A stretch of DNA of 61,276 nt, filler included, from Nemertoderma westbladi (Eukaryota; Animalia; Xenacoelomorpha): NCBI GenBank assembly GCA_032718475.1. It is 3 parts of 3 records of this genome, joined end to end, with 100 filler letters (N's around TTAATTAATTAA, not from the genome) between each part and the next. Parts side by side here need not be neighbours in the genome. Positions count along the whole stretch, not along the records: positions 1 to 24,293 come from JAUCBJ010006029.1; 2 more parts are not named here. The stretch is one strand, 5' to 3'. The notes beneath the pieces were generated by a model. It made no database searches, was not told where the DNA came from, and saw only the letters and a program-made list of their open reading frames with translations. Numbering within the stretch: the stretch's first letter is position 1; each line of letters opens with the position of its first letter. Positions 2,761-57,344 of the stretch are shown here, piece after piece. A program made the position numbers and the translations under genes.

Positions 2761-5700
2761 CATAGGGAGTAGTCTTATCGCCCGATGAGAGACAGCGGAT
2801 TACTCAGATAGAGCCGACTATACAACAGAACCCTAGCCAGGAATTTATTACGAGGGATGAGTTAAGTGCTAGTTTAGCGCAAGCTATATCGCCGCACATC
2901 CAACCTATAACGGACATGCTTAGCAACCTACGGTTAAAGGAAGCAGCCCAGGTAAGAAGTAATTCTAATCCTAGCAGGCCTGAACTAGATAAAGTCCAAC
3001 CTAGTCAACGAGTATGCATATCAGAGGCAACTATACCACATAGACCTCAGGTAAGAACGCCTATCCCGACGATTTATAATCCCAACTTCGAGAACTCGGC
3101 CGAAAGGTTTATACAAGAAGCCTGGGTCAGGGCTTCGGCACGCAAACCAACGCGAGCGCTGAGGACTGACACAGACTCAAGCGATGAAGAGGAAGACATG
3201 AGACGTCAGAAGTCCCGAAACTATAAGGTATGAAGGACCGACGCAGAGCAGGTAAGTTTGAACCACCGGGAAAGGACCAGACTTAATAACCCTGCAGAAC
3301 TAAACCATTTGTTAACCTGGAACGACGCAACCCTTAGAGACATAGGTAAGTTTGCCGCTAGGCAAGGACTGCCGACGCAACAACCCCAAAAGTTTATGGG
3401 CAACCATAGACATTGGAGGACGTTCAAAACCTATGTCGACGAACAGCTGACCAACAGCACCTTTACTCCCAACGAGAAGTTCAACTATCTGCTTCAGATG
3501 CTCCATCGAGAACCTAGAGCCATTGCTGACAACTTCGTCGGCAATGAAAGAGCATTTGAGTTGGCAATGAAGACGCTTAGCGACATCTATGGGAATAAAA
3601 TCAAGATGGCACAGTCGATAGTGGAAGACTTGGGTAAGGGCAGAAGGATTACAACTCCGTTAGAGCTGTTGAACTTAGCGAACGCTATTTCGAACGCATT
3701 AGACATCTTGAGGACGGTGAATCTACCTCATCATGGTGATCACGCCGAAGTTTTGAAGAGCATAATAAGACGTTTAAACATGCGTTACCGACAGAAATGG
3801 CGCAAATTAGAGAATAAGTTAGAGGGTCAAGGTAAGGTGTTGACACTTCAACACATCCATGACATGATAGCCACAGACGCGGTAGCAGAGATGAACAAAT
3901 TTCTCAGAGGAGAATATGAGAGAGTCTAAACCTGTTACCGGTAAGTCAATGGTAAGTTTTGACGATGACATGACCACTGTGACTTTTAACTCAGTAGACA
4001 GATATAATTTGAGTACCCCTGCCTTTAGATCAGACTCGCGAGTATGGTCAGGTGAGCAGTCAGATAGACCTAAGTTAAAGCAACAGGAGTTGCCGGTTGG
4101 ATTTGTAGGTTGCCAATTCTGTTTACTAAAGGAGGTAAGATCTGACGACCATAAGTTAGACAGTTGCAGACGGTTCAAAGAATTAACTTCGGAACAGAGA
4201 AGAGTTCAAGTGCGGACGTAGGACACCTGTTGGGCATGTCTTGCGCCAGGTCATGTACTGCGGCAGTGCCCGAACAGTAAGGATAGATGCATGGAATGCG
4301 GCAGACTACATCACAAGTTGCTACATGCGGATTTCCATACCCCAACGGACCGTTACCTACAGAGAAATCCTCAAAGGAAGGGGAGCAGAGAACCCGTATC
4401 GATAAGAAGAAATACGTACACCGGCATCCAGGACGATGGTTATCAACCAGGTTCGTCGGACGAGGATGGCGAGGCGAGCGCGAGAGAAGTGACCTGCCAA
4501 GGGTTCACCGCGGGTAGTTCATCGACCAGCGCGCGGACATATTTGTCATCGGCCACGTCGGAAATATTCAGCGTGATTCCGGTGAAACTTACTGGAGATA
4601 AGGGATCAAAGAGAATATATGTGATGTTGGACACTGTGTCCACATTATCTTATATCGACGAGGAAGTGGCGAGAGCCGTTTCCAGCTTCCAGGATGCAGA
4701 GGAGATCCAAATAGAGTTAAAGTCCATGCATGGGGTAGGGGACCTCAAGGGACACGAAATTTCGGTTGAACTAGACTCCCTACTCCCAAGAGACCAGCAC
4801 ACTCGCCAAGAACGGAGAGCGTTGCCATTAGACGGATTCAAGTGTCTAGCTATGAAAGGGTTCGGCAGGCAGTTAGGTAAGGCGCCACCGATGAGTCCCA
4901 TAGCACAGGAGTATTTTGACAAGCTCAGAGTACCGAGACACCAGGTAAGTTATAGGAATGTATCTATGTTAATTGGTGCAGAACAGCTGATCGCACACCA
5001 AATATGGGAAACGAGACCAGCTGAGCCGCATGTAAATGGACCACATGCCCATAGGACTATACTAGGTTGGTATACACGAGTACCCATGTCTTATGAGTTT
5101 ACAGGTGGCGACAAGCCAAAGGATAGATACAACGGATTACAGCCTATAACTCAACCACCATTAGTAGAACCACCAGACATAGACGAGTTTAGGAGAGCCT
5201 GTATTGACCACTATAGTGACGTTAGCGAGTCGGACGAAGAGTTGATTCCTGATAATGTTAGATTGTCAGAACCACTCTATAACGACCGGACAGATAGTGA
5301 ACCCGAGGACTACTGTTATCAGACCCGTGGGTCTGGTTCAGCGGCCCACGCTACCTACTTGAGTAATGTTTTGACTTACACCGATATAGTGGAGGGTCAA
5401 GTGGCTAGATATCGAGACCTAGACACTTTCCAATACAGTGAGGAGGAATTGCAGGAGGAATTGTTACGCCAGGACCTCGAGACAGGAGCTAGAACCGTGG
5501 AATGGCTGGATAGCGATGCAATGGAACCCGGTGGATATGACCTAACCATGTCCACTGATGAGAAACGGTCGCTGGAGATGATGGAAGACACCATATGTCT
5601 GCTACCGACAGGACATTTTGAAGTTGGAATGTTGTGGCGTCGACAACCACCTAAGTTGGAGAACAACTACAACTTAGCCTTGAAAAGATTAAACGGAGTA

Positions 5701-8700
5701 AGGGCTCGGTTGCTGAAGAATCCAGACATTAGGGAGAAGTATTGCGCCCAGATAAACAACTATTTCGCAAGGGGGTTTGCTGGGAAGGTAGAGGACCCGG
5801 ACTTAGTGACGGACCAGACTTATTACCTCCCACACCACTATGTGACTCATCCTGACAAACCAGACAAAGTCCGATTAGTCAACGAATGCGCAGCAGTCTA
5901 TAGAGGTATGTCCCTGAATTCAGAGTTGATGGATGGCCCCAACCTGAATAATTATTTGATAGGAATACTGTTGCGCTTTAGACAGCGGCGATTCGCGTTT
6001 ACTTGCGACATCGAGGCGATGTTTCACCAGGTAAGAGCCTGCAAGGCAGACCAGGATAGCCTCAGATTTCTCTGGTACGAGAATGAAGACCTATCCGGCC
6101 CAGTGGTTACATACCAGATGTATGTCAGGATATTCGGTGCCCGCGATAGTCCCAATGGCACGCTGTTTGTTCTAAAGAAAACGGCGACGGCCCAGATTGG
6201 TAAGTATCCAGTAGATGTTATCGAGTCCATCTTGAGAAATTTCTACATGGACGACGGATTGGTGTCCAAGGACACAGCAGAACAAGCCATAGAAGTGGCT
6301 CACGGCCTACAGGAGTGCTTGGCTACAGGGGGTTTTCCTCTGACCAAGTTCACTAACAACTCAGAGGCCCTATTAGAATCGTTCCCGGTGAAAGATCGCG
6401 GGAGCGGAGACATTGAATTGGGGGTAGAACCCATCCCCATGGCGCGAGTACTGGGACTCGCTTGGAACCCGAACACGGATAATTTCCAGTTAAGAGTTAG
6501 GTTCGAGCCCAATAGTCCAGACAAAGTTTTGACTAAGAGAATCTGCTTATCCACAATGAGTAGACTATTCGACCTGATGAACTTTCTCAGCCCGGTAATA
6601 TTACAGGCACGAGTATGTATGAGGAAAATTTGGTTGTCCGACCTAGAGTGGGACGAACCAATATCCTATACATGCAAAGCATTGGAGAGAGTGGGAAGCC
6701 GAGTTGCATCTATTGAAAAACATAGATGTACCCCGCTCCTACTTTCCGAATCAGCTGGTATTTCCAGCTGATCTCGAACTGCATTTGTTCAGTGACGCAA
6801 GTGACACCGGCTTTGGTATGGTAGCCTACCTTCGCCGAGAGGTAAGTCAAGACAAATTTGAGACGGCCTTTGTGACTTCTAGATCAAAGACAATGTCGGT
6901 CAAATACATGACTGTCCCTCGTGCAGAGTTACAGGCGGCAGTAGTCTCAGTCGAGGTAAGTAAGCAGATAATAGAGGAGTTAGACACGACATTGACCTTA
7001 TTCTATTGGACGGACGCATCCTTAGTGTTAGTATACATTGCAGCCGACAATATTGCACTAAAGACATTTGTGGCCAACAGACGCGCTCAGATCGTCGACT
7101 TTTCGACGAAGGAACAATGGAGACATTGTCCGGGAGTGTTAAACCCGGCCGCCATAACTTCGAGAGGTGCTATGCCGGCAGAATTCTGTCAGGAAGAGTC
7201 CCAGGAGTTTTGGTTGCATGGACCTGATTTTCTAACGAGGACACAGGAACATTGGCCAGACCGACTGAAGATAGTGACCAATCCGATGCCAGAGGATGCA
7301 GAAGTCAAAGTGGAGAAAGTCTCCAAGTCTAAGTCGAAAGCCAAACTCAAGTTGTTGGATTGGCCTGAAGAGTCATTGGAGCGGCCTGAAGAGTCATTGG
7401 AGCGGCCCGGAGACCTGTCAGACCTAGAGACTTATGTGACGACTAGGTCTGGAAGGGTAAGTTATGACATAAAACCACCCTTACAGACTAAACAAGGGTC
7501 ACAATTGGTAAGTGACGGACAGAAAATGACCTACAAGATGGAGCCTTTGGTTTCCAAACCTGCGGGTTTGAATTCGAAACTTCCATTAACTAACGGACGA
7601 CCGTTGCTGGCATTAGAGCCATGTAGTATATATGACAAATTACTAAATTCGTCTGCCTCTTGGCTGACAATTTGTAAAAGAGCTGCGTGGTTAAGCCGAT
7701 ACGTTTCGTACCTTTGTTTAAAACATTTGGAACATTTAGGAGAACAAATGAGCACTAATATTGAGCGAATTCAGAAATTGAAACGACCTCTGACAGAGGA
7801 TGAGATTGATCAAGCGGAATTAAAGCATTTGAAGCATTATCAAATGTGTGCCTTCCCAAAAGAATTCTATCTATTATCGGCTCAATGACCAGTTCTCTAT
7901 AAACCCCTTAGAAAATGGAGCCCATTAATCCATAAGGGTTTGATTTGTCATAGATCGAGAATCCAGACTGTCGACATAAACTCACAGTTTAGGTTCCCAG
8001 TGATAATCCCTAGTCACCCAAAAGAATTGCAAAGAGCGATTCTATGGGATATACATAAGAGGTTGCATCACGCGGGAAAGTTACACTGTTTGTCGGCAGC
8101 GAGACAGCGATTCATTCTATTGCAGCCAAGCAGGGCAGTAGGTAGTATGTACGACGCTTGTCTGGTTTGCAAGAGAGTGAACGCCAGAGTATTGGAACAG
8201 GAGATGGCTGAACTCCCGGAAGCGAGAGTGCAGGCATATGACCCACCCTTTACAAATACAGGGGTGGACTGTTTTGGTCCGATTGAGGCAAAGAGTGGAT
8301 GGCTGACCCACAAGCGATGGGGCCTGCTACTGATATGCATGGCCAGTAGAGCCGTACATATAGAGCGTGTGGCAGACATGTCGACCAAATCTCTGCTCCT
8401 GGCCTTAAAGAGATTTATGGCCAGGAGAGGACTAGTAAAGGCGTTTTACTCCGACAAGGGTACAAACTTTGTCGGAGGGAATAGCGAGTTGAACGCGGCT
8501 CATAGGGCGGCGCAGAATAGAGAAATCTCTGCAGCACTTTTGCCGCAAAGAGTGGAGTGGAGATTTAACACTCCAGAAAGTCCTTGGAGAGGAGGAAGTT
8601 GGGAGCGTTTGGTTCGTTCTATAAAGCAGGCCATTGCTAAGACATTGCCTGTAAACAAACAACTTACCGACGACAAGCTGGTCACAGCTTTCATCGAAAT

Positions 8701-9218
8701 CGAGCATACACTAAACTCGAGGGCGATAGCTATGTTGCCAGACGGTGTTGCTTTAACGCCGAATCATTTGCTAATGCAGAGTCCAGCGTTTCTTGTGCCG
8801 AGCATCAGAACCCATTAGTGCCGACCTATACAGTCGTAAGAGCTGGAAAATAACCCAATTTGTTGCGTACGCATTCTGGGAATATTGGCGGGAATATTAT
8901 CTTCCCACCATATCCACCAGATCGAAGTGGTACAAAACGGTTCGGAGCCTCCAAAGAGGAGACTACGTATTGATAACCGAACCAGTTGTCAAGAGAAAAT
9001 ACTGGGAGACCGGAGTCATCTTGCACATACACCCAGACGTGCAAAATATAGTGTGCACCGTCACTGTGAAAATAAGGTGCAAGTGTCCGCACCCAAAGAA
9101 GTGTAAAACTAATGGTTTACACACCTTGGACCGACCGGTCCAAGATATCGTGTTATTAGAGGAGACACGCATCGAGACAGGAGATTATAATTTGTCTCCT
9201 GCCTCAAACCAAAATTAG
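2761..9218 (+). pseudogene. BEL/Pao gag-pol with several stops and frameshifts
   Basis: Gag DUF1759-like EKFNYLLQML; Zn fingers CQFC..H..C, CWACLAPGHVLRQC, CMECGRLHHKLLH; protease MLDTVS; RT FYMDD; RNase H LHLFSDAS; integrase HHCC, GVDCFGP, SDKGTNF, WERLV; DUF5641-like tail FWEYWREYYLP. Confidence 0.93.
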
Positions 9219-9977
9219 TGTTGGACGCAACTCACTTCGTATGCATTCCTCGTATGCAAATACTAGGAAATGCATAGGAGCGGGTTTGTGGTGATTTGCG
9301 TTGAGAATTTGTCTGGTGGGTATCAAAACAAAATTTTATCTTCAAAAATGTTTGGAAAATTAAAAATTTTAAAAATTTAGAAGTGAACCCAAGACAATTC
9401 CAGACGCTGTGTATAGACGCGTTTTAGAATTCGTCTATAGACATACAGTAATTTGAAAAGTCGTGAAGCCTGGAAAATAGCATTTAGAAACCATGGTGAT
9501 TACGGCTATATTACGTAGGAGTGTAAATTGAGTTTAGCAACTTCCACGGATTGGTGCCAACAGTACAACAACCAAGGTGCTAAAGGTTAGTAGCACCAGA
9601 GGCGTACACGGACCCCACTCAGTAGTTTGGAGTGAAGTGAGGTGTTCGATTATCAAACCTGCGGGTTTGGTATAGTCGAGCACCAAGACTATTGTCCTTT
9701 CTAACTACTGTAGTTTAGTACGAGTAATGGGAGTAGTTTTGGCATCAAAAAGTGAGTTGGTCACAGCCAGTTTATCTCCAAAGTTTTTGCGCTATGCATG
9801 GGAATAGGTTAGAGGATAGTTAGGAATGAGATGGGATCTAGAAAGTCGAACCTGAACTGCTGGAAGGCGGCTGGGGGGTTCGGGAGGTCTGTCCTTCGGC
9901 GTCATCTAACTGATTTACCCACAGTGTAATTAGTTACATAACGGACCTATTGGGATATATGTATATACGCTGCTATA

Positions 9978-11931
9978 ATGGAGAAGGAAATTAGAGCGCA
10001 ACCGAGGAGAGGATTTACTGCCAGAGAGGAGGCGGAACTACCATTTGCCCGACCCGGGTGTAAAGACTCAAACGTCTACTACCATGGGAAGTCGGTGATG
10101 GAATTGAATGGGAAGTACAAGCCCACGTATGATAAAGAGTTGAGGAGGGAACGGATGAGAGCGTTGGGAGACTGCATGGAGGTTTTAAGGAAGGAGTATC
10201 GCACTCGTTATCCCTACGACTTTGCCTTAGATGTATGTGACATTAGTGCAGACCCGGACGAGGAGATCGCACGGCTGTACCATATGAACATGTATTTATG
10301 ATACGACGAACCTCTACCTGCAGTCCGAGATCAGTTCGACGGAATGCATCTGTACCGGAGGACTCGAGGTGAGGATCAAGAAACGCCAAAGGTCTTCAGT
10401 GTATACAAGTTGTTCTACAAATGTGGTGAATGCATGAATAAACAAGACATGGCGATTCCCGATCAACTGAACGAGCAACATCCTGAACCGATATTAACGC
10501 GATGTCAAGCTCACCAGTTCCTTAGATACAATGAGGGCGGTTACCCGATGAGCAACCCGATGATCAGTATCGACTTTAGCGGAAAGCGACCTCCGAGACC
10601 CATTACACCGACCGTTACGACTTTAGATCCGTATACGGAGATTAAACCCTGTTCGACACCCAGTTTGATAGAGACGGCAGCGGCCATTTCGCTATACCGA
10701 GCCTATAAGGACCTAGAGGTGCGGCGCGAAGTGGCATGGGACTCGGGTACCAAACCCGCAGGTTTGGAGCTCTCGAGTCCATGGACTACGTTTACTTTGC
10801 CTCACCGAGCGAGAAATCTCACGCCTGAGCATCAGGACGACATAGATGCATTGCGGCAGGAGGAGCGAGCGGCGAAGGCGAAACAATTATTCGAAGAACG
10901 GGTAGCCGAGTATAATAAGACCGCGGATAGACATCAGGAGGAGACGAGGAGAGTGACCGGATTTGTTCCACAGGCCGTATCTCAACCCCGACCGATGTAT
11001 TATTCTGACGGCAACGAACCTGCGATATTGGTAGATCACCCGGAGTCGCGAGAAGCGATTAGATTCTTGCCGATGGAGAGAATGTCGGATCATTGGAACG
11101 TCGACTGCCTACGGGAAGTTCTTGCGTGACGTCCCAATGCAGATAACGGATTACGACACGCTAGACAAGATTGGAGCTCCAGGAAAGGATAGCAAGTTGT
11201 TTTGATGGTTGGATAAGTACATAAAGGTATGGGTCGCGGTGGCTACATTCCCAGACGACGAGGAGGTAGACCAGGCGTGGCTAAGGAGAAAGGGTTCCTA
11301 CACCCGATACGATGACCACAAGGCTATTGAGCGCATGTGGACCCCATCCGACGAGATCTAGCGTCAGTGGAGAAAGATGGAGGAATCACTACAAGATTGG
11401 CGAGTGATATTCTACGACAATGAGGGAGGGTCCCATCAAGAATGTTTAACTAGTAAGTGCATTCAAATTCGCGCGGCCGATGGTGTGACTCATGTGTTTA
11501 TGCGTGTGAGGGCGGACCGAGAGAGACCGGAGCCCATAATAACGATGCAATATCGGCGGGGGAAGGATCCCAGAGAACAGATTTTGGAGGTATGCAGGTG
11601 AGGAGGTATGCACGGAGCGGAGCGTATCGATGCCAGGATGCTACCCAAGAAAGTAAGAGAGGCGATTCTCAATCAAGATTATGTCAAGGTGGGATCGGGA
11701 GTCCAGAGCAATTTGGAGAGTGACTTCAACGCCATGACTGATTTGGAGGACAGATTGCCGAGACCGTTTGTCGACACCAAGCTATTGTTGCTATGGGCAC
11801 AGGATATTGGAATTTATAGGGAGTATCCCAACTCTGCCAAGACTGGTATGGGCTTCATAGTGCATTTGTTATATAATTGGGACTTCAAGTTAAAGACGCA
11901 AAAGAAATACGAGGAGGCGTATGGTGAATAT
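9978..11931 (+). pseudogene. Family A extra ORF, 5' part: unknown N-terminus plus DEDDy 3'-5' exonuclease-like ExoI/ExoII
   Basis: ORFs 9978, 10344, 11377 and 11608 are linked by point stops and one frameshift; IFYDNEG, CIQIRAADG, LPKKVREAILNQDYVKVGSGV and FVDTKLL resemble WRN_exo/Mut-7 motifs. Confidence 0.72.
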
Positions 11932-14900
11932 AACACGTCCGTGGGGCCTTCGCGCAGCACGAGGCCCAGTTATGAGATACAAATTAAAATTGTGCGACTG
12001 TATCACAAAATCAGGTTATGAGAGATTAACCCACACCACCAATTAATCAAAGAAAGGGGGACAGTACGTGTTCACCCCTTTTAATCTGCACCCCCCCCCC
12101 CCCCCCTCCCCCACCCACCAATACATAACCGCGACATCTACCACCCACGGAAGGGTAGCACGAACTTAATTCCAAACGCACGTTCAATATGCAAAGCCAG
12201 GTGGTTTATAGGAATATAATCAATGCAGTACTCGTCTTCATTATAAGCCTCTTTGCGTTCGACCTGCTTTGTATTAAAATATATTTATTAAACGCAGGCT
12301 GACGCTCTTTATAATAATAATACCTAGGGATGCCAGCTTCCAGACTTTCAATCTTTACTGCCACGCAAACCCCGCAGAGGAAGTTTTGGTTTGAGAGATC
12401 AAGCCCATCGGCAATTGGTGTTTCAATTTCGGTCCAGGAACTCTGACAATGGGATCATTCAATCTTAGCTGTGGTCCATTCCCGTGGTTTCGGCTCCCTT
12501 TTCTTCGTCCCAATAACAGATTCTTCTGAAGACGTTCGATTCGCTTTCAGTTTATTGTTGGCGTTTGTGTTTTGAAGTTGTATTCGAGTGGACAGTCGCG
12601 CCGGTTTCGAGGTAACCGCTTTCAGTTTATTGTTGGCATTTGTGTTTTGAAGTTGTATTCAAGTGGACAGTTGCGCCGGTTTCGAGGTAACCATACCGAC
12701 CTGTGATAAGCGTTGGTTTTGTTGAGTGTCGGTATTCATCTTCTCTCACCTCTCCAATGTCAGATGTTGCAAATACGAATAACGGTATATATTTCAATAC
12801 TTGTCAATAGTAATATAGATAATTTACTATTTTATATCTGTACTGTTGAGCAAACTCTACATAAATTCCAACCTGTGTATCGTCGGTAGGGCTGTTGCTG
12901 TGCAAGTGCTAGTTGCCACCGGTCAGCCGGTACCGGTAGTAGGGTGGTACCATGGCCTACTACACACAGGCCATGACAAGGACTTTGCTGTGAAATTAGC
13001 GTAGGCTGACTGATGAATTATCAAATATTATATTTTCCATGAATGCAGGGTCCACATTTAAAAGAAGATGACTAGATTTTCGTAAAGAATTTAATTGAAA
13101 CAGTATTTAATAATAAATAAATTAATTATCGCTCGAGTTCCTGCAGCTTTTATTCATGGCAGGAATGTTTGAACGCTAATAAGTCGGTCAATCATGGATG
13201 AAATGGAACCAAACTTGGTACTCATGTAGTCTATAAAAAATTTAGAAATTCTACACACAGACAGACTTCTACAGTTCCCCGGTCTGCCGTTAGGGGGCGA
13301 ATTAACAGAAACGTAAAAATAGCTGTAATTATAGAACCAACGATCAGATTCATCTGAAATTTAGTAGTAGTTACCTACGAGCATTGCTTAATTAGAAATT
13401 CTACAGAGACTTTTACAGTTCCTGTCTGCCGCTAGTGGGGAATTGTTAGAGCTCCAGTTCAACGTGCTTAGCACGGTTTAATAAACAATCAATTAATTAT
13501 TTTATTCAATACAGCAATTATAACAGTAAAATGCAATGTATTCTATTTTTTAGTGAAATCAAGAGATAGGAGGGGGGTGGGACTGGACGCAAATCCCATC
13601 TTGGCGAATTAATATCCCGCCTCAATATTAATTTCTAAATTTTGGGAAAGGAGCAGGTTACAGTGGCACGTTATTTTAACCAAAACAATAAAGTAAACAC
13701 AATAGAACAGGTTACAGTTTTATTTTTGAGAGTAATCAGCTGTTGTTATTTGCGTCCAATTTCCCCTGGAGAGGGATGAATTTTTATTGCGTCCAGTTCC
13801 CCCCCCCCCCCCCCCCCCTATCTTGAAATCAAATACCAAAAATATATTTATTATATGAACAATCTATTTGGAAATTGTAAGTTCGGCCTATCTCTTTACC
13901 ATAAGCTCAGTATCTTTATCTGGTGTGTTTTTATTATTTTACCAATTATTTAATATGTTTGATAGAATTGAACAACACCGCCCAACACAACCAACTCTCT
14001 ATCCGCCTCGAGCATCGAGAAATACCTGCTTATCCCAGTAGTATCCGTCCGTAGTCACCGGACCGCTGCGGTTTACTCCCGTAGAACAGTAGAATTCCCG
14101 CAGCTTCCGACCCAATTCGACAACGAATTCGCTTCACACTTTTGCGTCACAGAGAACGTAATCCAGTGCGATAACGTCTGCCCAACGTTCAACCATTTCC
14201 CCCAGGCGATCCCAGGATACGGGCCGCCGCTAAACCCTGATCGCACTCCTCGTCGATTCGTCCAGTCGTCGACGTAAGTCAGTAAGTGGGACTCTTCCCA
14301 CCGCACTCCAAGGTGGGTGACCGGAGTGAGGCATGATGAACTTGGCAGTGGCCCGCATTACGATCTGACCGACCGCCGTATTCCCAGTGTAGTAAATACC
14401 CAAATAGAATCGTACTGACAAACAAGCAATTCCGTAGTATTCCCCTGTTAATCACCTCTTGAAGCAAATCGGCTGTCGATACATCGGACTGTCGGGAGCG
14501 TTTCAGACAGTAATGGAGCGGCATTTGCGAATATTTCCAATGGTTTTATAATAAATAAGGGGATTCAACAGTTCAATGCTAAAACAAATGGATTATTCCT
14601 AACCCCACCCCAATACAGCAATATACCTAACAGTATATAGCTTAGGTACCACAGTCTGACAGTACCATAATCAGCACAGTCAGCCTACGCATGGGTGGTA
14701 CCTACGGTGCGCACTACAACGGCAGTACAGCAATACGGTGTACCGTGCCAATGACTGAATGATTAGCGGTAACTACTGAACTATCTAAACTATTATATTA
14801 TTATTACCGGTACTAGGCTAATTAGGCCTAAACTATAATCACCGCAAGGGTTTCCGGGGCCATGTTTAGATTACATGATATGGCATGTCTGCAGTGTATG

Positions 14901-15370
14901 GTACCGGCTGACCTGTATTGCAGTATTGACTGATTGCAGAATTCTCGATTCAGGAATTGAGTACAGCCTGACAGTACCGGTACAAATGGTACATGCAGAT
15001 TGGCAGACAGCCCCTATGTTTTGCAAAATTTGTCAGAAAACCAGCTGATTTATCCTACAGTAATAATAATTTAACGCATGTTAATTTTGGATAAATAAAT
15101 ATATTATAACTACAATAACAGTTACACCGAAGCTGCACGAAGGCCCCGCGCAAATTCTACTTGGAAAATTTTCAAACTTTTGCCAAACAACATGTGTACC
15201 AAGTTTGGATAGATTTCATCAAGGATTGGCCGAGTTATTAACGTTTAAAATAAAATACTGAAAAAAAACGCGACAGAACGACAGAACAACAGAACGACAG
15301 AACGACAGAACGACTGGTTGATTAATGGTACCACTACGCTAAGGCTCACTCACTTTGTGGCTCGCCCCAC
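11932..15370 (-). mobile_element. Helentron/HINE (DINE-1-like) non-autonomous element inserted in the extra ORF
   Basis: Removal restores the frame (GAA TAT|ACA CCA CCG); no clear TSD; hairpin gggcct...aggccc near one end, gtggggc/gccccac sub-terminal IR, (acagaacg)n microsatellite at 15270-15314; same two ends occur at 26182-26472. Confidence 0.75.
13970..14520 (-). pseudogene. Captured aldehyde dehydrogenase (ALDH3-like) fragment, frameshifted
   Basis: Stitched frames: TADLLQEVI..IYYTGNTAVGQIVMRATAK..TLECGGKSPTYVD..IAWGKWLNVGQT..REFYGSKPQRSGDYGRI, a class 3 ALDH core. Confidence 0.85.
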
Positions 15371-17013
15371 ACACCACCGGGAGCGGAGTTCAAATCCCAC
15401 TTCAAGCGGCAAGCGTTAGTGTATTGGAACATCTGCGCGCCACCCCGTGCGTCGCTGCAATATTATTTGGTGCTTGAGTCGAACACGGTAACTTGTTTAT
15501 TAGCGGATATCGTTGCGCGAGTTTTGAAGCGTCATCCATTGGTATTCGTTCGGATGAGATCAATACGTTCGCTCGAAAGGGGGAATCCAATCCGACGTGA
15601 TGAAGCGTTTCTTAACCCCGTTCTTCAACCAATCGTTAGAGAATACGTCAATGGTTAGGAGAGGATTAGCGATATTCGAAGGAGTATATCGACAGAACAT
15701 CGGAGATTTGGGAGACCGACCATCGATGGAGTATCCGACGCCAGAGGCCTTGGAGAAGTGGTTAGGGAATCAAACCCGCGGGTTTGGTACTCCCGTCCAC
15801 TTGGAGGCGGATAGACCCGTTAGAGAGGGTTGGCCGGAGACATTAGTAGAGGTGTTCGGAGTGGATCTTCCGGTGGAGAAGACATATCCGAAACGAACGC
15901 GGGAGGAAATATTGGAGATAGAGGACAAGGGCGAGGATGTTTACTTTGTTCCGGATCGACAACCTCTGACCAGAGAGGACGACATCGTATTAGATATTGG
16001 GAAGGAAGGGAGTGCGAAACCGATTGGAGACCTCATATATGAGAGGGGATGGTTTCCACAAGCGCGTAGATGCAAGCTGTGCGGCAGCACGAGACACAAT
16101 CAAAAGTCGTGCGACGCGGTAGTAGAGGCGGCGCATAAGGTCTGCCGTTGGTGTAAAGAGACAGATCACTCGTTTCATACGTGCACCGTCTTCATTTCTC
16201 AATGCGGATATTGTGGGGTAAAGGGACATCGTAGCGCGAGATGCCAACTACGAGATGATTCCTTCCAAAACCATAGCATTTTGGGCAGTAGACCCATCGC
16301 ACATTGCGTATGAGCCATATCTACAATCGTTACCGCAATATCAGGAGCTAATATTAACCGCTCAAGATCTTCCGCAGAACACTGGAGTTATTGTTGTTCG
16401 GGAATACTTTCGACAACTTAACATGGATAACAAATATACTTGGAACTTTGTTGCTATTTGCGACCGTATAACAAAGGGTCTATTTTCAGAAACCAGGAAG
16501 GTGGTGCACACGCGAGGAGACTGGAAAATGGCGGCTATACAATACCGCAATGAGTTCCTATTGACTCACATACCGGTGGGGTCATTGACCGCCGAGCGGA
16601 TAAAGGAGCAGCGAACCGCAGCGCCCACAGCGACAACCGCTGGAGCTCAAGGCTCGCAGCGAGAACCAGGAGGAGAGGTCCTAGACAAGCGTCAAGTCAA
16701 GGACGACCGCTATCATTCGATTATAGAAGCGCAGCGATTGCAGCGCAAGGCACAGGGGGCGTCCGAAAAGGCGCGTGTGCAATTGCAGAAGGAGGAGTTG
16801 GTGGAGGCGACCACAGGAGCACGACAATTGGGACGAGGCCGAGGGAGAAGTACCAGCCGAGAATCAGTCAGGGCCCAGGGAACATCGTCGCCGGTTCCGG
16901 GGAGTGACGCCTCACGGGCGCCGTCAACAGAGTCAACACGAGGAAGACTGGTGTATCTGGGGAGGGGGCGAAAAAGAGGAGCGAGCCCGAAGAGCCCAGG
17001 AGCGGGTCAATAA
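15371..17013 (+). pseudogene. Family A extra ORF, 3' part: ExoIII-like helix, three CCHC zinc knuckles, basic RG-rich tail
   Basis: YWNICAPPRASLQYYLVLE; CKLCGSTRHNQKSC, CRWCKETDHSFHTC, CGYCGVKGHRSARC; tail GRGRGRSTSR; two frameshifts. Confidence 0.75.
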
Positions 17014-17532
17014 TGCAATCGTATCACGGAACGACAGACTCTAGATATATACATCATTGTCGCTCTGATGTATATTGTAGCATTTTTGTAAATATTCGAC
17101 TGGACTCATATACACTAGTCGTACTAATTTGAATTTATATTATGAGAGAGGAGAAGGAGGCGATTGGGGAGACAAACCTGCGGGTTTGGCTTACTCCTTT
17201 CACCTGCCCTAGCAAGTTTTATATGAAGGCAATATTTAGTAAATTTAATTTTGTATGTAGTAATCATTATGTAGTACAAACGAGAAAGCAGTATTTTTGT
17301 AAATTTAATTTGTATGTAATAATCGTTAACATTGAGAGAGATAATATTTTTGTAAATTTGATTTGTATGCAAACCCATTATGCAATATATCTGCAATATT
17401 TTGTAAATACTTAGAATTATTATGATACCAAGTTAATTAGATTCTTTGAAAGTGAATTTATTTTGTTTTGTCTACATCGCCCTATATTCTTCTACAATTG
17501 GAGGGAAACATTGCTTGTTTCCCTTGGAGCGG

Positions 17533-19775
17533 TGTTACGATATATGGCGCTGTGTACCTATATTAGTCGTTATACAGTATATATATATATAGTATTAGAT
17601 AAGCCATAAAGACGTGCAATCATATTTAGATAAGGAAAGTAAAACGCCCATATTTGAATTTATCCATTTTATACAGTATGTAGTCCTACCTAGGTAATTT
17701 TGTAATAAAATATAAGTAAATAGTTCCATTGATATAAGCTTGCTGTTATTAGCCTCAATAGGACTAGCTGTGTATTGGGTTTAATTTTCTTTATATTTGC
17801 GCTAAATTAATTTCTATGTATCATATTATTAGTACCGCTAAATTAAGCATCACCAAAATTAACATATATGGTGACGATTTGTGATTTCAAGGAGCAATAG
17901 GTTCACAATCCGGCTTCCTTATTGGCCTAGCTGCTTCCAGGTTGGTCTAATGGTAGCGCAGATTGGGGAGCCAATCAGAGAACTATTGCATCATCCCTCG
18001 TGAATCACCTATAAATTGGCGGTATTTCCGGTATGTGCTGTGTAATTTTCTCATGATCTTAATCTCTCTATCTCTCACTATTCTGCTGTACTGTCACGAC
18101 TGTACCTTAGAATTATTCTGTATTTTGCGTATTTTGTAATTTTGTCATGATCTCAATCTCTATCTCTCACTATTCTGCTGTACTGTCACAACTGTAGAAT
18201 TATTCTGTATTTTGCGTATTTTCTGCTTTTTTCAATTATTTCTTGCAATAATTCGCTAATTTGTAATTTCTACTGATTTCTTGTTGTGTTTCTCAATTCA
18301 ATCCCAATGATTACTGCTAATTACAATCGGAACTATGATTTCTACCCTTTAGTTAATGGTTCTATGTATTCCTTTCGATGCAATAATCCCATGGGATTTC
18401 CTTAGACTGTCAGACTTTGTGATTGCATGCGCCGTTACGGTAGCTACCCATTAGATGGAGGGCTGAGGTACCGGTAGGCGCGGCAGGCGCATCGGGGGGT
18501 TAGCGACGAAGGGAGTGGGGAGGATTCAAAGGCAAGCAACGCTGGCGGGGGGTCACCGTTGCGGTCGGAAGGTTGGCAGTGTAGAGAGAAGACAGCTCGC
18601 TGGTACAGTAATTAATGGGCTGATGATCCAGATTTTGTCTCTATTTTGTAGTATTAGGGGGGCAGGAATCGGGTTAGTTAGGAAGCCTAGATGTACCCGG
18701 GAGAGGCCTTTGTGCTTTACATTGCGGACTGAATTGTAGACTGCGTCGCAAACTACGTTGCGAACTGTAGATTGCGAGTTGTGAACTGTGAATTGCTGAC
18801 TGCTGATTGTGAATTGTACATTAGGAACTATAATTGGTAAGTATAAATTATTGATTGTTACGCTGATTGGTGTGTTGCTAAAGTGTGCCTAATAAATCAT
18901 GAATGTTTAGATAGGCGCCCTTTTTCCTTTGATTGATTTCTATTTCTTAGTTTACGATAAATAATTACTGATTAGGTCGAAAATAATACAGTATTTAGGC
19001 TGTTACTAGTGCAACCCGTTGTGTAATAAATTAGAATTACGCATTCTGGAACACTTAGTAATTAGTACGCTGTTTCATATTTGTGACTGCAATTAATTAG
19101 TAAAATTAAGAATTTGTATGCAGCATAGCGGAGAGTAGTTAAGGTAATAATTTGGAGTACCGTAAACTATTCACGCTGGGCGGTTATTTGAAATTAGCGG
19201 GTAATAAGTTAGATAGCAGTATCCAGTACGCAGAACGCAGTAGTAAATTGCTGGCCTAAAGCCAGCCGAAGGCAAGTTTAGACCTATAGTAGGTATTAGT
19301 CCCTGATAAGACACTGCATCTTCCTTTTTTTGATTATTTAAATATTCTCACATTCACATATTCCGTTAGGGAACCCCAGTATTTGCTATTAGAAAGGACG
19401 CGGTTATTAGCGCGTTTTAGCAGTAAGATTAGGCCATAAAGAATATACTCTGAGTGTAAAGCCTCTCACACTCGTTTTAAGTAGCTTAGGGAGCCGATTC
19501 GGGTTTATTGTTTTGGTTTTCCCGCGTGGCTCATATATTCGAACAGTTAGCTCTCTATCGAGCGATCGGTAGAGAAAGGAACAAGCGATTTGCAGGAGCC
19601 GTAGAAAATTTGTAAAATATATTAGCGGATGGCAGGTTAGCGCCATCCAACGGTAAATAGCGGTTTTGTATTTAGCAGCCCTACAGTAGTAATAGCACGC
19701 TCCTGATCACCCCTGTTTAACAGTAGAGCAGTCTTTGTGTCTTTATTGGTTAGGCAGGGACCCGCTAGTTTAACA
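17533..19775 (+). repeat. 3' LTR of family A copy 1 (2243 bp)
   Basis: TGTTA...TAACA termini, preceded by a hairpin and GGAGCGG; homology with 45420-47499 ends exactly at TTTAACA. Confidence 0.88.
17965..18020 (+). promoter_or_regulatory. Putative LTR promoter (CCAAT + TATA)
   Basis: agccaat...cacctataaattggcgg, conserved in copy 2 (45901-45968) amid divergent flanks. Confidence 0.55.
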
Positions 19776-20169
19776 GTGGCCTATGATATTTTACCTAGTC
19801 ACTTGCAATTTATAACTAATCATTTGCAATTTACTATTATTGCATTACTTGTTGATTAATATATTGGACCAGAGATCAAATCAACTCGATTTCCACACGG
19901 TGAGTGTAAGTGCGCCTTGTCAGTAATAAGATTTGGTTCATTTAATGCGAATGTGTGAGTCCATAGTATTGTTATATTATTCCCAACTAGTAACTATTAT
20001 TTACCAGCGATGCAAGTGATTCGAGTAAATCGTGCGCTTATCACGCACTAGGCCAAGTAGCCTCCTACCTGTGATATATGTATGTCATATGTACATCCAC
20101 GTTGTATAGCGCAGTGAGAGTGAGAAGAATAAACGGGAGGACTTGCTTGATTGTGCTCATATAATATTT

Positions 20170-27161: not shown

Positions 27162-27539
27162 CTAAACAATGAAAAAATAATATGGAAGGCCACTCAAAAC
27201 AAAAATTAAAAAAAAAAACAATTCGCTTTTCTTTAGAGTATTATTTATTAAAAAAAAAAAAGTTTTTAATAAATTTTAATTTATGCCACCTGTGGCTGCA
27301 TAGACCCCCTGCCCATACTAAGGGTAAATCTGGTCCTGTAACTAAGACCCCCTTCGTACTGGGTTAGGGACGCCCTTGGTCCTGGGTTAAGGACCCATAT
27401 AATGCCAGTCCAGGACAGGCGATGGCAATGGCTGACCAGGAGTAGAGTGCTCTCATCTGACATGTGCATTGGTGATTTTCAACCACTTCTACTGCCACTG
27501 GTTGTTGAGGATGGTTTGTATTACCCGCTATTTATTTCT

Positions 27540-28005
27540 TTAATTAACGGATTGCTCAGCGGATTTCTCATTAACTTACGGCCGCTGTTTCTTTAACTAA
27601 CGGATTTCTCATTAACTTACCCACTGTTTCTTTAACTAACGGATTTATCATCAACTTACCCGCTGTTTCTCTAACTAACGGATTTCTCATTAACTTACCC
27701 GCTGTTTCTCTAACTAACTGATTTCTCATTAACGTATCCGCTGTTTCTCTAACTAACGGGTTTCTCATTAACTTACGGCCGCTGTTTCTCTAACTAACGG
27801 ATTTCTCATTAACTTACCCGCTGTTTCTCTAACTAACGGATTTTTCATTAACTTACCCGCTGTTTCTCTAACTAACGGATTTCTCACTAACTTACCCGCT
27901 GTTTCTCTAACTAACTGATTTCTCATTAACGTATCCGCTGTTTCTCTAACTAACGGATTTCTCATTAACTTACCCGCTGTTTCTTTAACTGGCGGATTTC
28001 TCGTT
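27540..28005 (-). repeat. 39-bp minisatellite made from the WASF exon 3/intron junction
   Basis: About 11-12 copies of gagaaatccgttagttagagaaacagcgggtaagttaat on the minus strand. Confidence 0.9.
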
Positions 28006-28097
28006 TCTTCTCAGTATCCTTAACCATCGCTTCGCGCCACAACTCGAAGAAAAAGTTTGGATTCGTGTAAAACTTGAGACAATCTTTCCCATCATCC
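27974..28097 (-). CDS. WASF: WAVE/SCAR exon 3 (end of WHD, basic region)
   Basis: (R)[41 protein letters not shown]; AG/GT boundaries with matching phases. Confidence 0.92.
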
Positions 28098-40805: not shown

Positions 40806-40821
40806 AGATGCAGAAGTCAAG

Positions 40822-42771
40822 GTGGAGAAAGTCTCTAAGTCGAAGTCTAAAGCCAAACTTAAGTTATTGGAGCGGCCTGAAGAGTCATTGGAGCGGCCTG
40901 AAGAGTCATTGGAGCGGCCTGAAGAGTCATTGGAGCGGCCTGAAGAGTCATTGGAGCGGCCCGGAGACCTGTCAGACCAACAGACTTACGTGACTACTAG
41001 GTCAGGAAGGGTAAGTTATGACATAAAACCGCCCTTACAGACTAAACCGGAGTCACAGTTGGTAAGTGACGGACAGAAAATGACCGACAAAATGGAGCCT
41101 TTGGTTTCCAAACCTGCGGGTTTGGATTCGAAACTTCCGTTAATTAGCGGACAACCGTCGCTGGCATTAGAGTCATGCAGTATTTATGACAAATTACTAA
41201 ATTCGTCTGCCTCTTGGCTGACAATTTGTAAAAGAACTGCGTGGTTAAGCCGATACGTTTCGTACCTTTGTTTAAAACATTCGAAACATTTGAGAGAACG
41301 AACGAGCACCAATAGTGAGCGAATTCGAAAATTGAAACAACCTCTGACAGAGGATGAGATTGATCAAGCGGAATTAAGGCATTTGAGACATTATCAAATG
41401 TGTGCCTTCCCTAAAGAATTCCATCTATTATCGGCTCAACGACCAGTTCTCTATAAACCCCTTAGAAAATGGAGTCCATTAATCCATAAGGGTTTAATTT
41501 GTCATAGATCGAGAATCCAGACTGTCGACATAAACTCACAGTTTCGATTCCCAGTGATAATCCCTAGTCACCCAATAGAATTGCAAAGAGCGATTCTATG
41601 GGATATACACAAGAGGTTGCATCACGCGGGAAAGTTACACTGTCTGTCGGCAGCGAGACAGCGATTCATTCTATTGCAGCCAAGCAGGGCAGTAGGCACC
41701 ATGTATGACGCCTGTCTGGTTTGCAAGAGGGTGAACGCCAGAGTATTGGAACAGGAGATGGCTGAACTCCCGGAAGCGAGAGTGCAGGCATATGACCCAC
41801 CCTTTACGAATACAGGGGTGGACTGTTTTGGTCCGATTGAAGCAAAGAGTGGACGGCTGACCCACAAGCGATGGGGTCTGCTACTGACATGTATGGCTAG
41901 TAGACCCATACATATCGAGCGTGTGGCAGACATGTCGACCAAATCTCTGCTCCTGGCCTTGAAGAGATTTATGGCCAGGAGAGGACTAGTAAAGGCGTTC
42001 TACTCTGACAAGGGTACAAACTTTGTCGGAGGGAATAGCGAGTTGAACGCGGCTCATAAAGCAGCACAGAATAAGGAAATTTCTGCAGCACTTTTGCCGC
42101 AAAGAGTAGAATGGAGATTTAATACTCCAGAGAGTCCTTGGAGAGGAGGAAGTTGGGAGCGTTTGGTTCGCTCTGTGAAGCAGGCCATTGCCAAAACATT
42201 GCCTGTGAACAAACAACTTACCGACGACGAACTGGTCACAGCTTTCATTGAAATCGAGCATACACTAAACTCGAGGCCGATAGCTATGTTGCCAGACGGT
42301 GTTGCATTAACGCCGAATCATTTGCTAATGCAGAGTCCAGCATTTCTTGTGCCGGCATCAGAACCCATTAGTGCCGACCTATATAGTCGTAAGAGCTGGA
42401 AAGTAACACAGTTAGTGGCGTACACATTCTGGGAATATTGGCGGGAATACTATCTTCCCACCATATCTACCAGAACAAAGTGGTACAAGACGGTTCGGAG
42501 TCTCCAAAGGGGAGATTACGTGTTGATAACCGAGCCGATTATCAAGAGAAAGTATTGGGAGACGGGAGTGATCTTGCACACACACCCAGACGTGCAAAAC
42601 ATAGTGCGCACAGTCACTGTGAAAATTAGGTGCAAGTGTCCGCACCCAAAAAAGTGTAAAACTAATGGTTTACACACCTTGGACCGACCGGTCCAAGATA
42701 TTGTGTTATTAGAGGAGACACGTATCGAGACGGGAGATTACAATTTGTCTCCTGCCTCAAAACAGAGTTAG
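40822..42771 (+). CDS. Pol C-terminus (integrase plus DUF5641-like), uninterrupted, 5'-partial
   Basis: 649-aa ORF with HHCC and DDE motifs; lacks the stop and frameshift of copy 1. Confidence 0.9.
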   Translation: MEKVSKSKSKAKLKLLERPEESLERPEESLERPEESLERPEESLERPGDLSDQQTYVTTRSGRVSYDIKPPLQTKPESQLVSDGQKMTDKMEPLVSKPAGLDSKLPLISGQPSLALESCSIYDKLLNSSASWLTICKRTAWLSRYVSYLCLKHSKHLRERTSTNSERIRKLKQPLTEDEIDQAELRHLRHYQMCAFPKEFHLLSAQRPVLYKPLRKWSPLIHKGLICHRSRIQTVDINSQFRFPVIIPSHPIELQRAILWDIHKRLHHAGKLHCLSAARQRFILLQPSRAVGTMYDACLVCKRVNARVLEQEMAELPEARVQAYDPPFTNTGVDCFGPIEAKSGRLTHKRWGLLLTCMASRPIHIERVADMSTKSLLLALKRFMARRGLVKAFYSDKGTNFVGGNSELNAAHKAAQNKEISAALLPQRVEWRFNTPESPWRGGSWERLVRSVKQAIAKTLPVNKQLTDDELVTAFIEIEHTLNSRPIAMLPDGVALTPNHLLMQSPAFLVPASEPISADLYSRKSWKVTQLVAYTFWEYWREYYLPTISTRTKWYKTVRSLQRGDYVLITEPIIKRKYWETGVILHTHPDVQNIVRTVTVKIRCKCPHPKKCKTNGLHTLDRPVQDIVLLEETRIETGDYNLSPASKQS

Positions 42772-43528
42772 TGTTAGACGCAACTCACTTCGTATGCATT
42801 CCTCGTATGCAAATACAAGGAAATGCATAGGAGCGGGGTTGTGGTGATTTGCGTTGAGTTTTGTCTGGTGGGTATCAAAACAAAATTTTATTTTCAAAAA
42901 TTTTTGGAAAATTAGAAAATTTTAAAAATTAGAAGTGAACCCAAGACAATTCCAGACGCTGTGTATAGACGCGTTTTAGAATTCGTCTATAGAAAACAGT
43001 AATTTGAAAAGTCGTGAAGCCTGGAAAATAGCATTTAGAAACCATGGTGACGGCTATATTACGTAGGAGTGTAAATTGAGTTTAGCAACTTCCACAGATT
43101 GGTGCCAACAGTGCAACTAAGGTGCTAAAGGTTAGTAGCACCAGAGGCGTACATGGACCCCACTCAGTAGTTTGCAGGATGTGTGATGTTCGATTATCAA
43201 ACCTGTGGGTTTGGTATAGTCGAGTATTGTGGCTATAGTCCTTTCTAACTACTGTAGTTTAGTACGAGTAATGGGAGTAGTTTGGGCATCAAAAAGTGAG
43301 TTGGTCACGGCCAGTTTATCTCCAAAGTTTTTGCGCTATGCATGGGAATAGGTTAGAGGATAGTTAGGAAGAGACGGGATCTAGAGAGTCGAACCTGAAC
43401 TGCTGGAAGGCAGCTGGAAGGGGGGTTCGGGAAGTCTGTCCTTCGGCGACATCTAACTGATTACCCACAGTGTAATTGGTTTGCGTAACGGAACACTTAT
43501 TGGGATATATATGTGTATACGCGGGCAT

Positions 43529-44601
43529 AATGGAGGAGGATATTAGAGCGCAACCGCGCATAGGATTTACTGCCAGAGAGGAGGCGGAGTTACCATTCGC
43601 GCGACCGGGATGTAAAGACTCGAACGTTTACTACCATGGGCGGTCGGTGATGGAGCTAAATGGGAAATACAAACCCACGATTCCCGACCGACTAGACGAG
43701 CAACATCCAGAACCGATATTAACGCGATGTCCAGCTCACCAATTCCTTAGATATAACGAGGGAGGTTACCCGATGAGCAACCCGATGATCAGTATCGACT
43801 TCAACGGAAAGCGACCTCCGAGACCCATTACGCCGACCGTTACGACATTAGATCCGTATACGGAGATTAAACCCTGTTCGACACCCAGTTTGATAGAGAC
43901 GGCAGCGGCCATTTCTTCGCTGTACCGAGCCTATAAGGATCTAGAGGCGCGGCGCGAGGCGGTACGGGACTCGAGTTCCTGGACCACGTTCACTTCGCTT
44001 CACCAGGAGAGGAAGCTCACGCCTGAGTATCCAGACGAGATTCGCGCCGTCCATCCGTCTACTAACTATATCCAAGATCCGCGGTTTATACGATATTTAC
44101 TCCAAATTATTTCGGGAAGTTTCGACGAACGCATTATTAAGCCCGAATATGTCCAATCCTTTATATATCATCGTCGCTCTGATATATACGTCTAGAATTA
44201 TTACCCAGCGCACAATTGGCGGCCTAAGGAGACTCGTTTGGGGTCATTGACCTCTGAACGAGTGGAGGATCAGGACCGCCGCGCCCACAGCGACAACAGC
44301 CGGAGCTCACAGCTCGCGGCATGTACCAGAAGGAGGAGTCCTTGGCAAGCGTCAAGCCAAGGACGAGCAGTTCCACTCTATAAAGTTGAAGGAGGAGTTG
44401 GCGGAGGCGCCCACAGGGACACGGCAAATGGGACGAGGCCGAGGGAGGAGCACCAGTCGGGAGATCGTCGGTGCCCAGGGAACGTCGTCGCCGGTTCCGG
44501 GAAGTGACGCCTCAAGAACGCCGTCAACAGAGTCTACAGGGGGTAGACTGGTGTATCTGGGGAGGGGAGCGAGCCCGAGAGACCCAGGAGCTAGCCGATG
44601 A
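43529..44601 (+). pseudogene. Internally deleted version of the family A extra ORF
   Basis: Start MEEDIRAQPR and end GRLVYLGRG are retained; exonuclease and zinc knuckles are absent. Confidence 0.85.
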
Positions 44602-49493: not shown

Positions 49494-49545
49494 GTCATAA
49501 ACTCACCAACTAAAGCAAACTGTGACTGCAACAAGACACAGCAAG

Positions 49546-57223: not shown

Positions 57224-57344
57224 AGTTTAGTCGTCCAATATGTTGGACTAAGGGGGGTGGGAATGAGGGTGAGACGCCCTTCCCACATAAAAATATAAAA
57301 AAAAAATAATAAGCAAATAATAAAAATAAGAAGCGAGATATTTG

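Follow-up and report, generated by a model that had tools for sequence, protein, structure and literature searches.

According to the excerpts of the reports cited here and below, the RSV NRS, a decoy located in gag (PMC3082916), binds U1 without splicing, and the genomic RNA stays unspliced (PMC3082916, PMC9143442). This NRS is a single structured unit that lies ~300 nt downstream of the true donor and combines a weak U1 site with an overlapping U11 site and a part that binds SR proteins. In the Arabidopsis Ty1/Copia element EVD, early termination is blocked by U1 at the gag-pol donor, which belongs to one conserved, truly spliced intron at the protease (PMC5580714). In host genes and reporters, sense 5′ splice sites block Restrictor and protect nascent RNA without splicing (PMC12211998). 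In Cer1 of C. elegans, as with HIV Rev, an accessory protein (CERV) is made from a spliced mRNA and the genomic RNA retains splice signals (PMC10309623).

Here we describe an array of 17 5′-splice-site motifs in the gag-to-RNase H part of family A, a multi-copy Bel/Pao LTR retrotransposon found in a window of 61,276 nt (the whole stretch of Nemertoderma westbladi DNA that was analysed). As in the RSV NRS, 5′ splice-site-like sequence occurs within gag coding sequence and upstream of a 3′ acceptor, but the family A sites are near-consensus, dispersed over 4.6 kb and without an excess of purine-rich flanks. An RSV-type NRS proper was rejected, since the array is not a single bipartite element and has no purine-rich SR-binding part. 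Family A would share with EVD the block of premature termination by U1, and differs from it in having an array of probable decoys. Unlike the sites studied in telescripting and Restrictor block, those of family A are packed in protein code, and its relatives avoid them. Cer1 is a Ty3/gypsy element, unlike family A, for which an export role is only predicted; family A has a predicted acceptor and an extra ORF with CCHC knuckles and no transmembrane segment, a candidate for an accessory protein of this kind.

Family A is an oversized Bel/Pao element

Family A carries Bel/Pao domains in the order DUF1759, Peptidase_A17 and Integrase_H2C2, with DUF5641 in copy 2 (Table 1). Its gag type and its pol order PR-RT-RH-IN are those of Bel/Pao. 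Its RT is nearest to Bel/Pao RTs (34–44% identity; PF05380 in 120/120 of the matches listed, which are 35–44% identical), and lies on a long branch in a tree of 79 Bel/Pao RTs without an outgroup. The domain set and order are thus common with Belpaoviridae, from which family A differs by its excessive size, a third ORF that is not env-like and a donor motif that is enriched rather than depleted. Its LTR of 2.24 kb and the whole element, estimated at at least 15 kb, are beyond the usual Belpaoviridae sizes (LTR 0.2–1.2 kb, genome 4.2–10 kb; PMC8742986), which are descriptive rather than defining. A search of viral_contigs found no relative. Each copy has one predicted 3′ LTR with TGTTA...TAACA ends and a short purine run, and both lack the 5′ end; the LTR limits were deduced from the termini and the two-copy match. 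The gag region of the first copy has lost its 5′ end, and stops and one frameshift interrupt its frame.

Table 1. Features of family A in the window, with positions counted along the whole stretch
Feature	Position	Strand	Remarks
Gag region, surviving part	2766..4320	+	DUF1759; Cys/His knuckles near 4110-4320
17 5′-splice-site motifs (G/GTAAG; slash, splice point) in coding sequence	2949..7513	+	G of each motif: 2951, 3050, 3251, 3345, 3633, 3831, 3940, 3951, 4134, 4876, 4944, 6030, 6199, 6841, 6955, 7456, 7507
Protease-RT-RNase H-tether region	4321..7520	+	Pfam Peptidase_A17; frameshift near 6650-6690
GGTAAG-free zone	7513..9924	+	Integrase up to 9215, and a spacer without coding sequence; 2.4 kb ahead of acceptor
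Predicted branch point and 3′ splice site	9905..9924	+	CTAAC at 9906; CAG ends 9924; no intervening AG
Extra ORF, 5′ part	9978..11928	+	Broken in this copy; no GGTAAG
Likely extra-ORF 3′ part, past inserted repeats	15558..17013	+	Three CCHC zinc knuckles, Arg/Gly-rich tail; no GGTAAG
Predicted 3′ LTR	17533..19776	+	2.24 kb long, with termini TGTTA...TAACA; TATA-like site at 18010
Second family A copy	40807-47499		91% identity to first copy
Homologous donors in copy 2	41008..41068	+	41010 = 7456, 41061 = 7507; both retained

GGTAAG is in excess on the sense strand and resembles a U1 site

All 17 coordinates in the preliminary description matched exactly, and its figure of 1–2 motifs expected in 4.6 kb is consistent with base composition (2.2 in 6.45 kb). 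The extended form AG/GTAAG, which it had called frequent, occurs in 11/17 and AG/GTAAGT in 5/17. Codon or dipeptide usage did not account for the excess: with the peptide and the codon usage held fixed over seven stop-free segments (6432 nt), GGTAAG was used at 17/33 encodable sites, where 3.58 were expected (P=2.6e-9; ~1e-5 after correction for 4096 hexamers). The expectation was 2.87 when codon usage was computed without the motif codons (P=7e-11), and 4.3 under an order-3 Markov null (P=3e-6). GGTAAG is the most frequent hexamer outright and ranks first among hexamers with at least 3 occurrences. The antisense strand has no GGTAAG in 2951–7512 (17:0), and the antisense control CTTACC was seen once against 1.17 expected.

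The nucleotides around the core also follow the U1 pattern. Given the core, position −2 is A in 11/17 (P=0.004 versus base composition) and +6 is T in 10/17 (P=0.001), and the near-miss GGTAA[ACT] occurs once against 4.65 expected. Eight or nine positions of the 9-nt U1 consensus are matched by nine sites on the sense strand and by none on the antisense strand. The extra ORF and the LTR have no site of this strength; all nine lie in the predicted intron. One host exon within the window ends in AAG/GTAAGT.

Taken as sequence patterns, these features make it well supported that the excess reflects selection on the motif. A neutral history, in which amplification to high copy without such selection started from a founder whose local composition or codon pairs were biased, or from a chance fixation, is highly improbable. 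It would fit the single lineage from which all family A data come, the favoured use of GTA and AGA codons and a copy-level conservation test that has nearly no power; but the excess persists under the codon-usage, leave-out and order-3 Markov nulls and the all-hexamer correction, occurs in two reading phases (six Gly-Lys pairs, 11 x-Val-Arg/Ser contexts), runs against a family-wide depletion and extends to the U1-matching flanks.

Binding by another factor, either a non-U1 RNA-binding protein or a DNA activator of the CAGGTAA type (Zelda/TAGteam or ZEB-like), is highly improbable. CAGGTAR is in excess (5 versus 1.25 expected), but CAG precedes the core in only 5/17 motifs, the reverse-strand YTACCTG is absent (0 versus 1.06 expected) and the variable positions track the 5′ splice-site pattern. 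DNA-binding sites are usually orientation-free, which counts against this reading.

The motifs are not private to the copy in the window: identical words reach depth 424 over 3831 and 473 over 3940/3951, compared with 44 for the flank contig. Among the loose ends, the sites at 3831 and 3940 are missing from diverged copies, which retain 3951, so individual sites turn over. Across 3822–3964, the copy comparison lists only two variable places, neither of them in a motif, and owing to edge effects this comparison is almost without power.

Other Bel/Pao elements avoid the motif

Bel/Pao relatives avoid or purge GGTAAG. Over 77 other loci, the sense strand has 40 against 103.6 expected and the antisense strand 95 against 98; grouped into 51 families, the counts are 27 sense and 57 antisense, and 38/51 families have no motif. 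The donor density of family A is ~25-fold that of other Bel/Pao families. Gly-Lys is encoded as GGT AAG in 6/8 cases in family A and in 15/250 in relatives, and [QEK]V[RS] is encoded as a donor in 8/11 and 10/199, respectively; the orthologous RT QV[RS] site is a donor in 1/28 families. Family B, in the same window and host, has no GGTAAG (1.9 expected), and the extra-ORF stretches likewise have none, in line with the lack of excess noted there at the outset.

A weaker excess (AG/GTAAG, 7 versus 0.6 expected) is present in L034, an unrelated family. This family is compact, with no extra ORF seen, which indicates that length and an acceptor are not required for the excess. L034, L040 and L054 all have an excess or a mild excess, and an extra ORF was not seen in the DNA examined. 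A single donor-rich clade was rejected: family A, L034 and L040/L054 stand apart in the tree, in which deep support is weak and family B is left out.

No support for the motifs as donors for the extra ORF

The preliminary description had offered two roles for the array: telescripting, or donors for a subgenomic mRNA of the extra ORF. The candidate acceptor ends at 9924, the position given there, with an upstream pyrimidine share of 0.65, and copy 2 has the same motifs near 43453–43470, where the two copies are just as alike (93%) as in the surrounding spacer. An in-frame stop directly follows the acceptor in the extra-ORF frame. Because joining any of the 17 donors, all within gag-pol, to 9925 leads to a stop within 1–2 codons, the sites cannot make extra-ORF fusions, and such splicing would truncate Gag-Pol. 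The general proposal of U1-type sites under RNA-level selection is supported by the 17:0 strand bias, the U1-like flanks and the depletion in other Bel/Pao; a donor role of the 17 sites for the extra ORF is not supported. That mRNA would need a donor located 5′ of gag, such as one within the LTR; donor-like sites at 19144 and 19653, retained in both LTRs, are candidates for the predicted true subgenomic donor.

Alternatively, some of the 17 sites may be real donors that join the 9924 acceptor and yield short Gag or Gag-protease mRNAs, setting the Gag:Pol ratio as in Ty1/copia. We consider this quite unlikely. The branch point and acceptor are good, each junction gains an immediate stop, sites 4876 and 4944 lie 3′ of both the knuckles of gag and the protease motif, and plant copia elements produce Gag from spliced RNA (PMC5580714, excerpt). 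However, nine sites inside gag would shorten Gag, 17 sites, spread across 4.6 kb and two phases, far exceed the needs of one isoform, and copia donors are positionally conserved whereas those of family A turn over. Real introns within gag-pol were rejected, as the sites sit in conserved RT motifs (e.g. MFHQVR) in open frames. Contigs of run X4, whose RNA origin is only guessed, are unspliced over seven donors and list no joint or loose end at 9925, which counts neither way.

The 3′ part of the extra ORF is tied to family A by copy 2 for 16577–17123 and by inference for 15558–16310; copy 2 lacks the knuckle stretch. No Pfam family or transmembrane segment was found in the extra ORF. A word search for relatives gave no match, and the Atlas gave a best value of 0.78 for one query and none for the other. 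Six weak matches were obtained (E 4e-6 to 9e-4), five of them on the knuckles. The single-sequence fold (pLDDT 38) was unusable.

RNA context of the sites

The gag-pol region has three A[AT]TAAA against 4.1 expected, so that no unusual cryptic poly(A) load was seen among signals of this canonical form; no AATAAA is common to the two LTRs. For acceptor-like motifs, gag-pol shows no clear depletion (TTTYAG, 0 versus 2.2; YYYYNCAG, 5 versus 4.9; pyrimidine runs, 26 versus 38). Fold exposure of the donors equals that of other GGT sites, and purine-enhancer-like words upstream score 0.82 at donors and 0.89 in controls. Recursive (ratchet) splice sites were rejected: YAG occurs in 7/17, but the upstream pyrimidine share of 0.25–0.60 is about background (0.44).

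U1 docking as the preferred reading

The reading we prefer, with a probability of about 0.5, is that the 17 motifs are selected, non-splicing U1 docking sites that would keep transcription of the long genomic RNA from ending early and perhaps brake splicing. U1 would load on nascent family A RNA every ~180 nt (median donor spacing, 176 nt), and the loaded U1 would block premature cleavage or Restrictor-type attenuation. The protected stretch would be what the predicted extra-ORF mRNA removes as a very long intron, and competition with the authentic donor, as by the RSV NRS decoy, is a further possible effect of the sites. Telescripting of the very long family A RNA is plausible. Strong 5′ splice sites occur on the sense strand only (9 versus 0 at 8/9 or better), as expected of telescripting or an anti-Restrictor function. 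Counting against U1 docking are the excess in L034 despite its lack of an extra ORF, the absence of motifs from family B, the lack of a canonical poly(A) excess in gag-pol and of an AATAAA common to both LTRs, the turnover of single sites, and the fold exposure and purine-enhancer content of the donors, neither of which exceeds that of other GGT sites. In human cells, unspliced 5′ splice sites in mature RNA lead to nuclear retention and decay (PMC9074902, excerpt), a cost that would need an offset.

Such retention might itself be what was selected. The donors would then retain unspliced RNA until a zinc-knuckle protein, translated from the donor-free spliced extra-ORF mRNA, released it, as with Rev or CERV. 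This export switch is compatible with docking, differing in what was selected, and we regard it as unlikely. It would account for the confinement of all nine strong sites to the predicted intron, and for an extra ORF with three CCHC knuckles, an Arg/Gly-rich tail and no transmembrane segment. According to the same kind of excerpts, 5′ splice-site motifs retain RNA through U1-70K and ZFC3H1 (PMC9074902), and CERV, from spliced Cer1 mRNA, is required for genomic RNA export (PMC10309623). Against it, L034, L040 and L054 show their excess with no extra ORF seen, the relatives of the extra ORF are limited to weak knuckle matches, copy 2 lacks the knuckle stretch and splicing at 9924 is a prediction.

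Intronless retroelements normally lose splice donors, as shown here for Bel/Pao (40 versus 104), and a successful family doing the opposite points to strong selection for U1 recruitment on RNA kept unspliced. If U1 docking is correct, family A would offer a natural system in which to study what U1 does independently of splicing (anti-termination, retention), and the array would be a means of countering host surveillance of intronless RNA, one that can be scored by sequence alone in any transposon library. A broader scenario, possible but doubtful on these sequence comparisons, is that some retrotransposon families have rewritten their coding sequence as a carpet of decoy donors, by which a genome without introns mimics an intron-bearing host gene and escapes premature termination; family A would add Rev-like zinc-knuckle export of the U1-loaded genome, and the strategy would have more than one origin within Bel/Pao (family A and L034).

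Donor density along the element

Sites close to the acceptor may have been purged because they would be used. The coding part of the GGTAAG-free zone has only four encodable sites, so protein constraint could also explain the zone (largest-gap P=0.016). Donor density falls from 6.2 per kb in gag (nine donors in 2766–4220) through 2.4 per kb in the protease-RT-RNase H-tether region (eight donors) to 0 (mean position, P=0.002), a gradient spotted after the fact and running from gag, under weaker constraint, to integrase.

Family A gag-pol overuses GGTAAG

As the preliminary description reported, the gag-pol of the Bel/Pao retrotransposon family A carries 17 sense GGTAAG motifs, every coordinate being exact. 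On the opposite strand of this region we counted none, and the excess is not mirrored there. Codon and peptide usage leave it unexplained. With the expectation derived analytically over seven stop-free segments, the peptide held fixed and family A's own codon usage applied, GGTAAG was used at 17 of 33 encodable sites against 3.58 expected (P = 2.6e-9), and it ranked first among hexamers occurring at least three times. The expectation dropped to 2.87 when the motif codons were omitted from the usage table; an order-3 Markov model gave 4.3 (P = 3e-6). Both possible phases, Gly-Lys and x-Val-Arg/Ser, show the excess. Flanking bases lengthen the match to the U1 consensus (A at -2 in 11/17 and T at +6 in 10/17, by a base-composition test only), and the near-miss GGTAA[ACT] is rare (1 against 4.65 expected). 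The excess is real, strong and contrary to the Bel/Pao norm, and there is good support for selection of U1-type sites. A neutral history of the motifs is very unlikely, and that they bind some other factor is the least probable reading.

Bel/Pao relatives are depleted of the motif

For comparison we used the best 79 of 525 Bel/Pao loci, from metagenome contigs, and counted the 77 with an ORF of at least 300 aa. In these, sense GGTAAG was depleted (40 against 103.6 expected; P about 1e-12 with redundant loci counted individually), and the antisense control was not (95 against 98). When these loci were clustered at 85% RT identity into 51 families, GGTAAG was absent from the longest ORF in 38, and the sense:antisense ratio was 27:57, with 16 of the 27 sense sites concentrated in three families. 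Its density is 2.64 per kb in family A and about 0.1 in these relatives. Gly-Lys is written GGT AAG at 6/8 sites in family A against 15/250 in the relatives, and [QEK]V[RS] is encoded as a donor at 8/11 against 10/199; the orthologous RT QV[RS] site is a donor in 1 of 28 of these families.

Of these three families, L034 has 7 AG/GTAAG against 0.6 expected (P = 2.5e-4 after 77 tests); the excesses of L040 and L054 are not significant individually. None of the three clusters with family A in a weakly supported tree, and no extra ORF (the third ORF, after pol, of family A) was seen in their contig sequence. Family B, another Bel/Pao family of the same host, has no excess, as first described (0 against 1.9 expected). 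The excess is therefore a trait of individual families, possibly with more than one origin in Bel/Pao. L034 (1538-5819) is a compact element unrelated to family A, with three of its seven AG/GTAAG[AT] in integrase.

Predicted outcome of splicing from the 17 donors

Donors become sparser towards the 3′ end: gag has 6.2 per kb, PR-RT-RH has 2.4, and the final 2.4 kb up to 9924, the end of the predicted 3′ splice site preceding the extra ORF, has none (P = 0.002 for the mean position and 0.016 for the largest gap, two patterns spotted post hoc). Since the integrase part could encode GGTAAG at only 4 places, protein constraint may contribute to its lack of donors.

LTR elements usually express a third ORF from a spliced message (PMC5408684), and the 17 donors had been proposed to serve an extra-ORF mRNA. 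The computed junction of any of them to 9924 meets a stop after 1-2 codons, and therefore no extra-ORF fusion can be made from them; real use of these donors in splicing is unlikely. The CTAAC...CAG arrangement recurs in copy 2, the second, partial family A copy, where its conservation is no higher than that of the spacer. The extra ORF lacks a donor excess, as noted initially, and neither it nor the family A LTR has a site reaching 8 of 9 U1-consensus matches. The LTR has two weaker donor-like sites (see table), whose 5′-LTR equivalents would lie upstream of gag and could donate for the predicted extra-ORF mRNA.

The predicted product of the extra ORF has three CCHC knuckles, a tail rich in Arg and Gly, and no hydrophobic segment; homology searches gave no clear relative. 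This third ORF (9978-17013) is an orphan, not env-like.

Proposed U1 docking as the simplest reading

The simplest reading is that U1 would dock on strong, sense-only, probably unused donors of an RNA that must remain intact. We give a probability of about 0.5 to such docking protecting family A RNA or braking its splicing. In reporter libraries, Restrictor is blocked by a 5′ splice site in sense orientation even when no splicing occurs, best near the start site (PMC12211998), which fits the 5′-to-3′ gradient of family A; U1 guards full-length RNA of EVD, an Arabidopsis Ty1/Copia element, at a gag-pol donor (PMC5580714); and the RSV NRS, a decoy donor inside gag, brakes splicing (PMC3082916, PMC9143442).

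Two points count against protection: gag-pol has no excess of poly(A) signals, and human cells retain in the nucleus and degrade RNAs that carry 5′ splice-site motifs (PMC9074902). The latter cost motivates the leading alternative, itself rather unlikely, of an export switch modelled on CERV, the accessory protein of Cer1 (PMC10309623).

The literature searched, mainly openly accessible, offers single decoy or real donors and no retrotransposon whose coding region carries a dispersed array of donors; the accessible part of PMC3118150 does not mention splicing. Bel/Pao coding sequence shows a general depletion of sense donors (40 against 104 expected in 77 loci, from the best 79 of 525).

Copies, layout and surroundings of family A

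The window is repeat-rich eukaryotic DNA. By domain content and RT (aligned with 24 of at least 120 homologues), family A is assigned to Bel/Pao, and it exceeds the Bel/Pao size ranges of the ICTV profile (PMC8742986). Its first copy has lost the 5′ end. Thousands of contigs in DNA sequencing runs match (16,754 in one run), so the family is multi-copy; the summed read depth over these matches is not a copy number. Copy 2 retains both donors within its span. Words identical to the first copy over 3831 and over 3940/3951 are roughly tenfold deeper than the flank contig, so these motifs are shared among family A copies; there are also diverged copies in which 3831 and 3940 are absent and 3951 is kept.

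Coordinates of features in the window
Feature	Position	Details
Gag (DUF1759)-protease-RT-RNase H-integrase, Bel/Pao type	2766-9215	domains; coding interrupted by several stops and frameshifts
Spacer after integrase		0.7 kb; precedes extra ORF
Predicted branch point CTAAC, AG-free run, CAG	9906-9924	sequence motifs
Extra ORF of family A, broken	from 9978	followed by inserted repeats
Further coding stretch beyond inserted repeats	ends 17013	
Predicted LTR of family A	17533-19776	2.24 kb
Weaker donor-like sites	19144, 19653	common to both LTR copies
Host exon	27161-26578	- strand; proline-rich; AG acceptor, AAG/GTAAGT donor boundary
Family A copy 2	40807-47499	91% identical to first copy
Family B, another Bel/Pao family	48872-58900	

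The host itself appears to use a GTAAGT-type donor, judging by a single host exon of the window with an AAG/GTAAGT boundary at its end. The final stretch of this exon is WH2-like; a Pfam search of the exon gave no match. A 39-bp minisatellite (27521-28070) repeats GGTAAGT on its minus strand and is the source of 7 of the 16 antisense GGTAAG of the window.

In the LTR after a TATA-like site (18040-19776), ATG occurs 17 times against 35 expected from composition, as could be the case in a long leader. Copy 2 directly abuts a 31-bp satellite (47499-48872), in which family B lies too, the unit resuming past its 3′ LTR (~58990); both families are located at one array. After pol (57300-57750), short AG-rich repeats of family B contain about 14 GTAAG that lack the donor's -1 G. 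Its 3′ LTR is followed by another PBS-like stretch and some 30 nt resembling the 5′ internal start (58905-58990), which suggests a tandem remnant.
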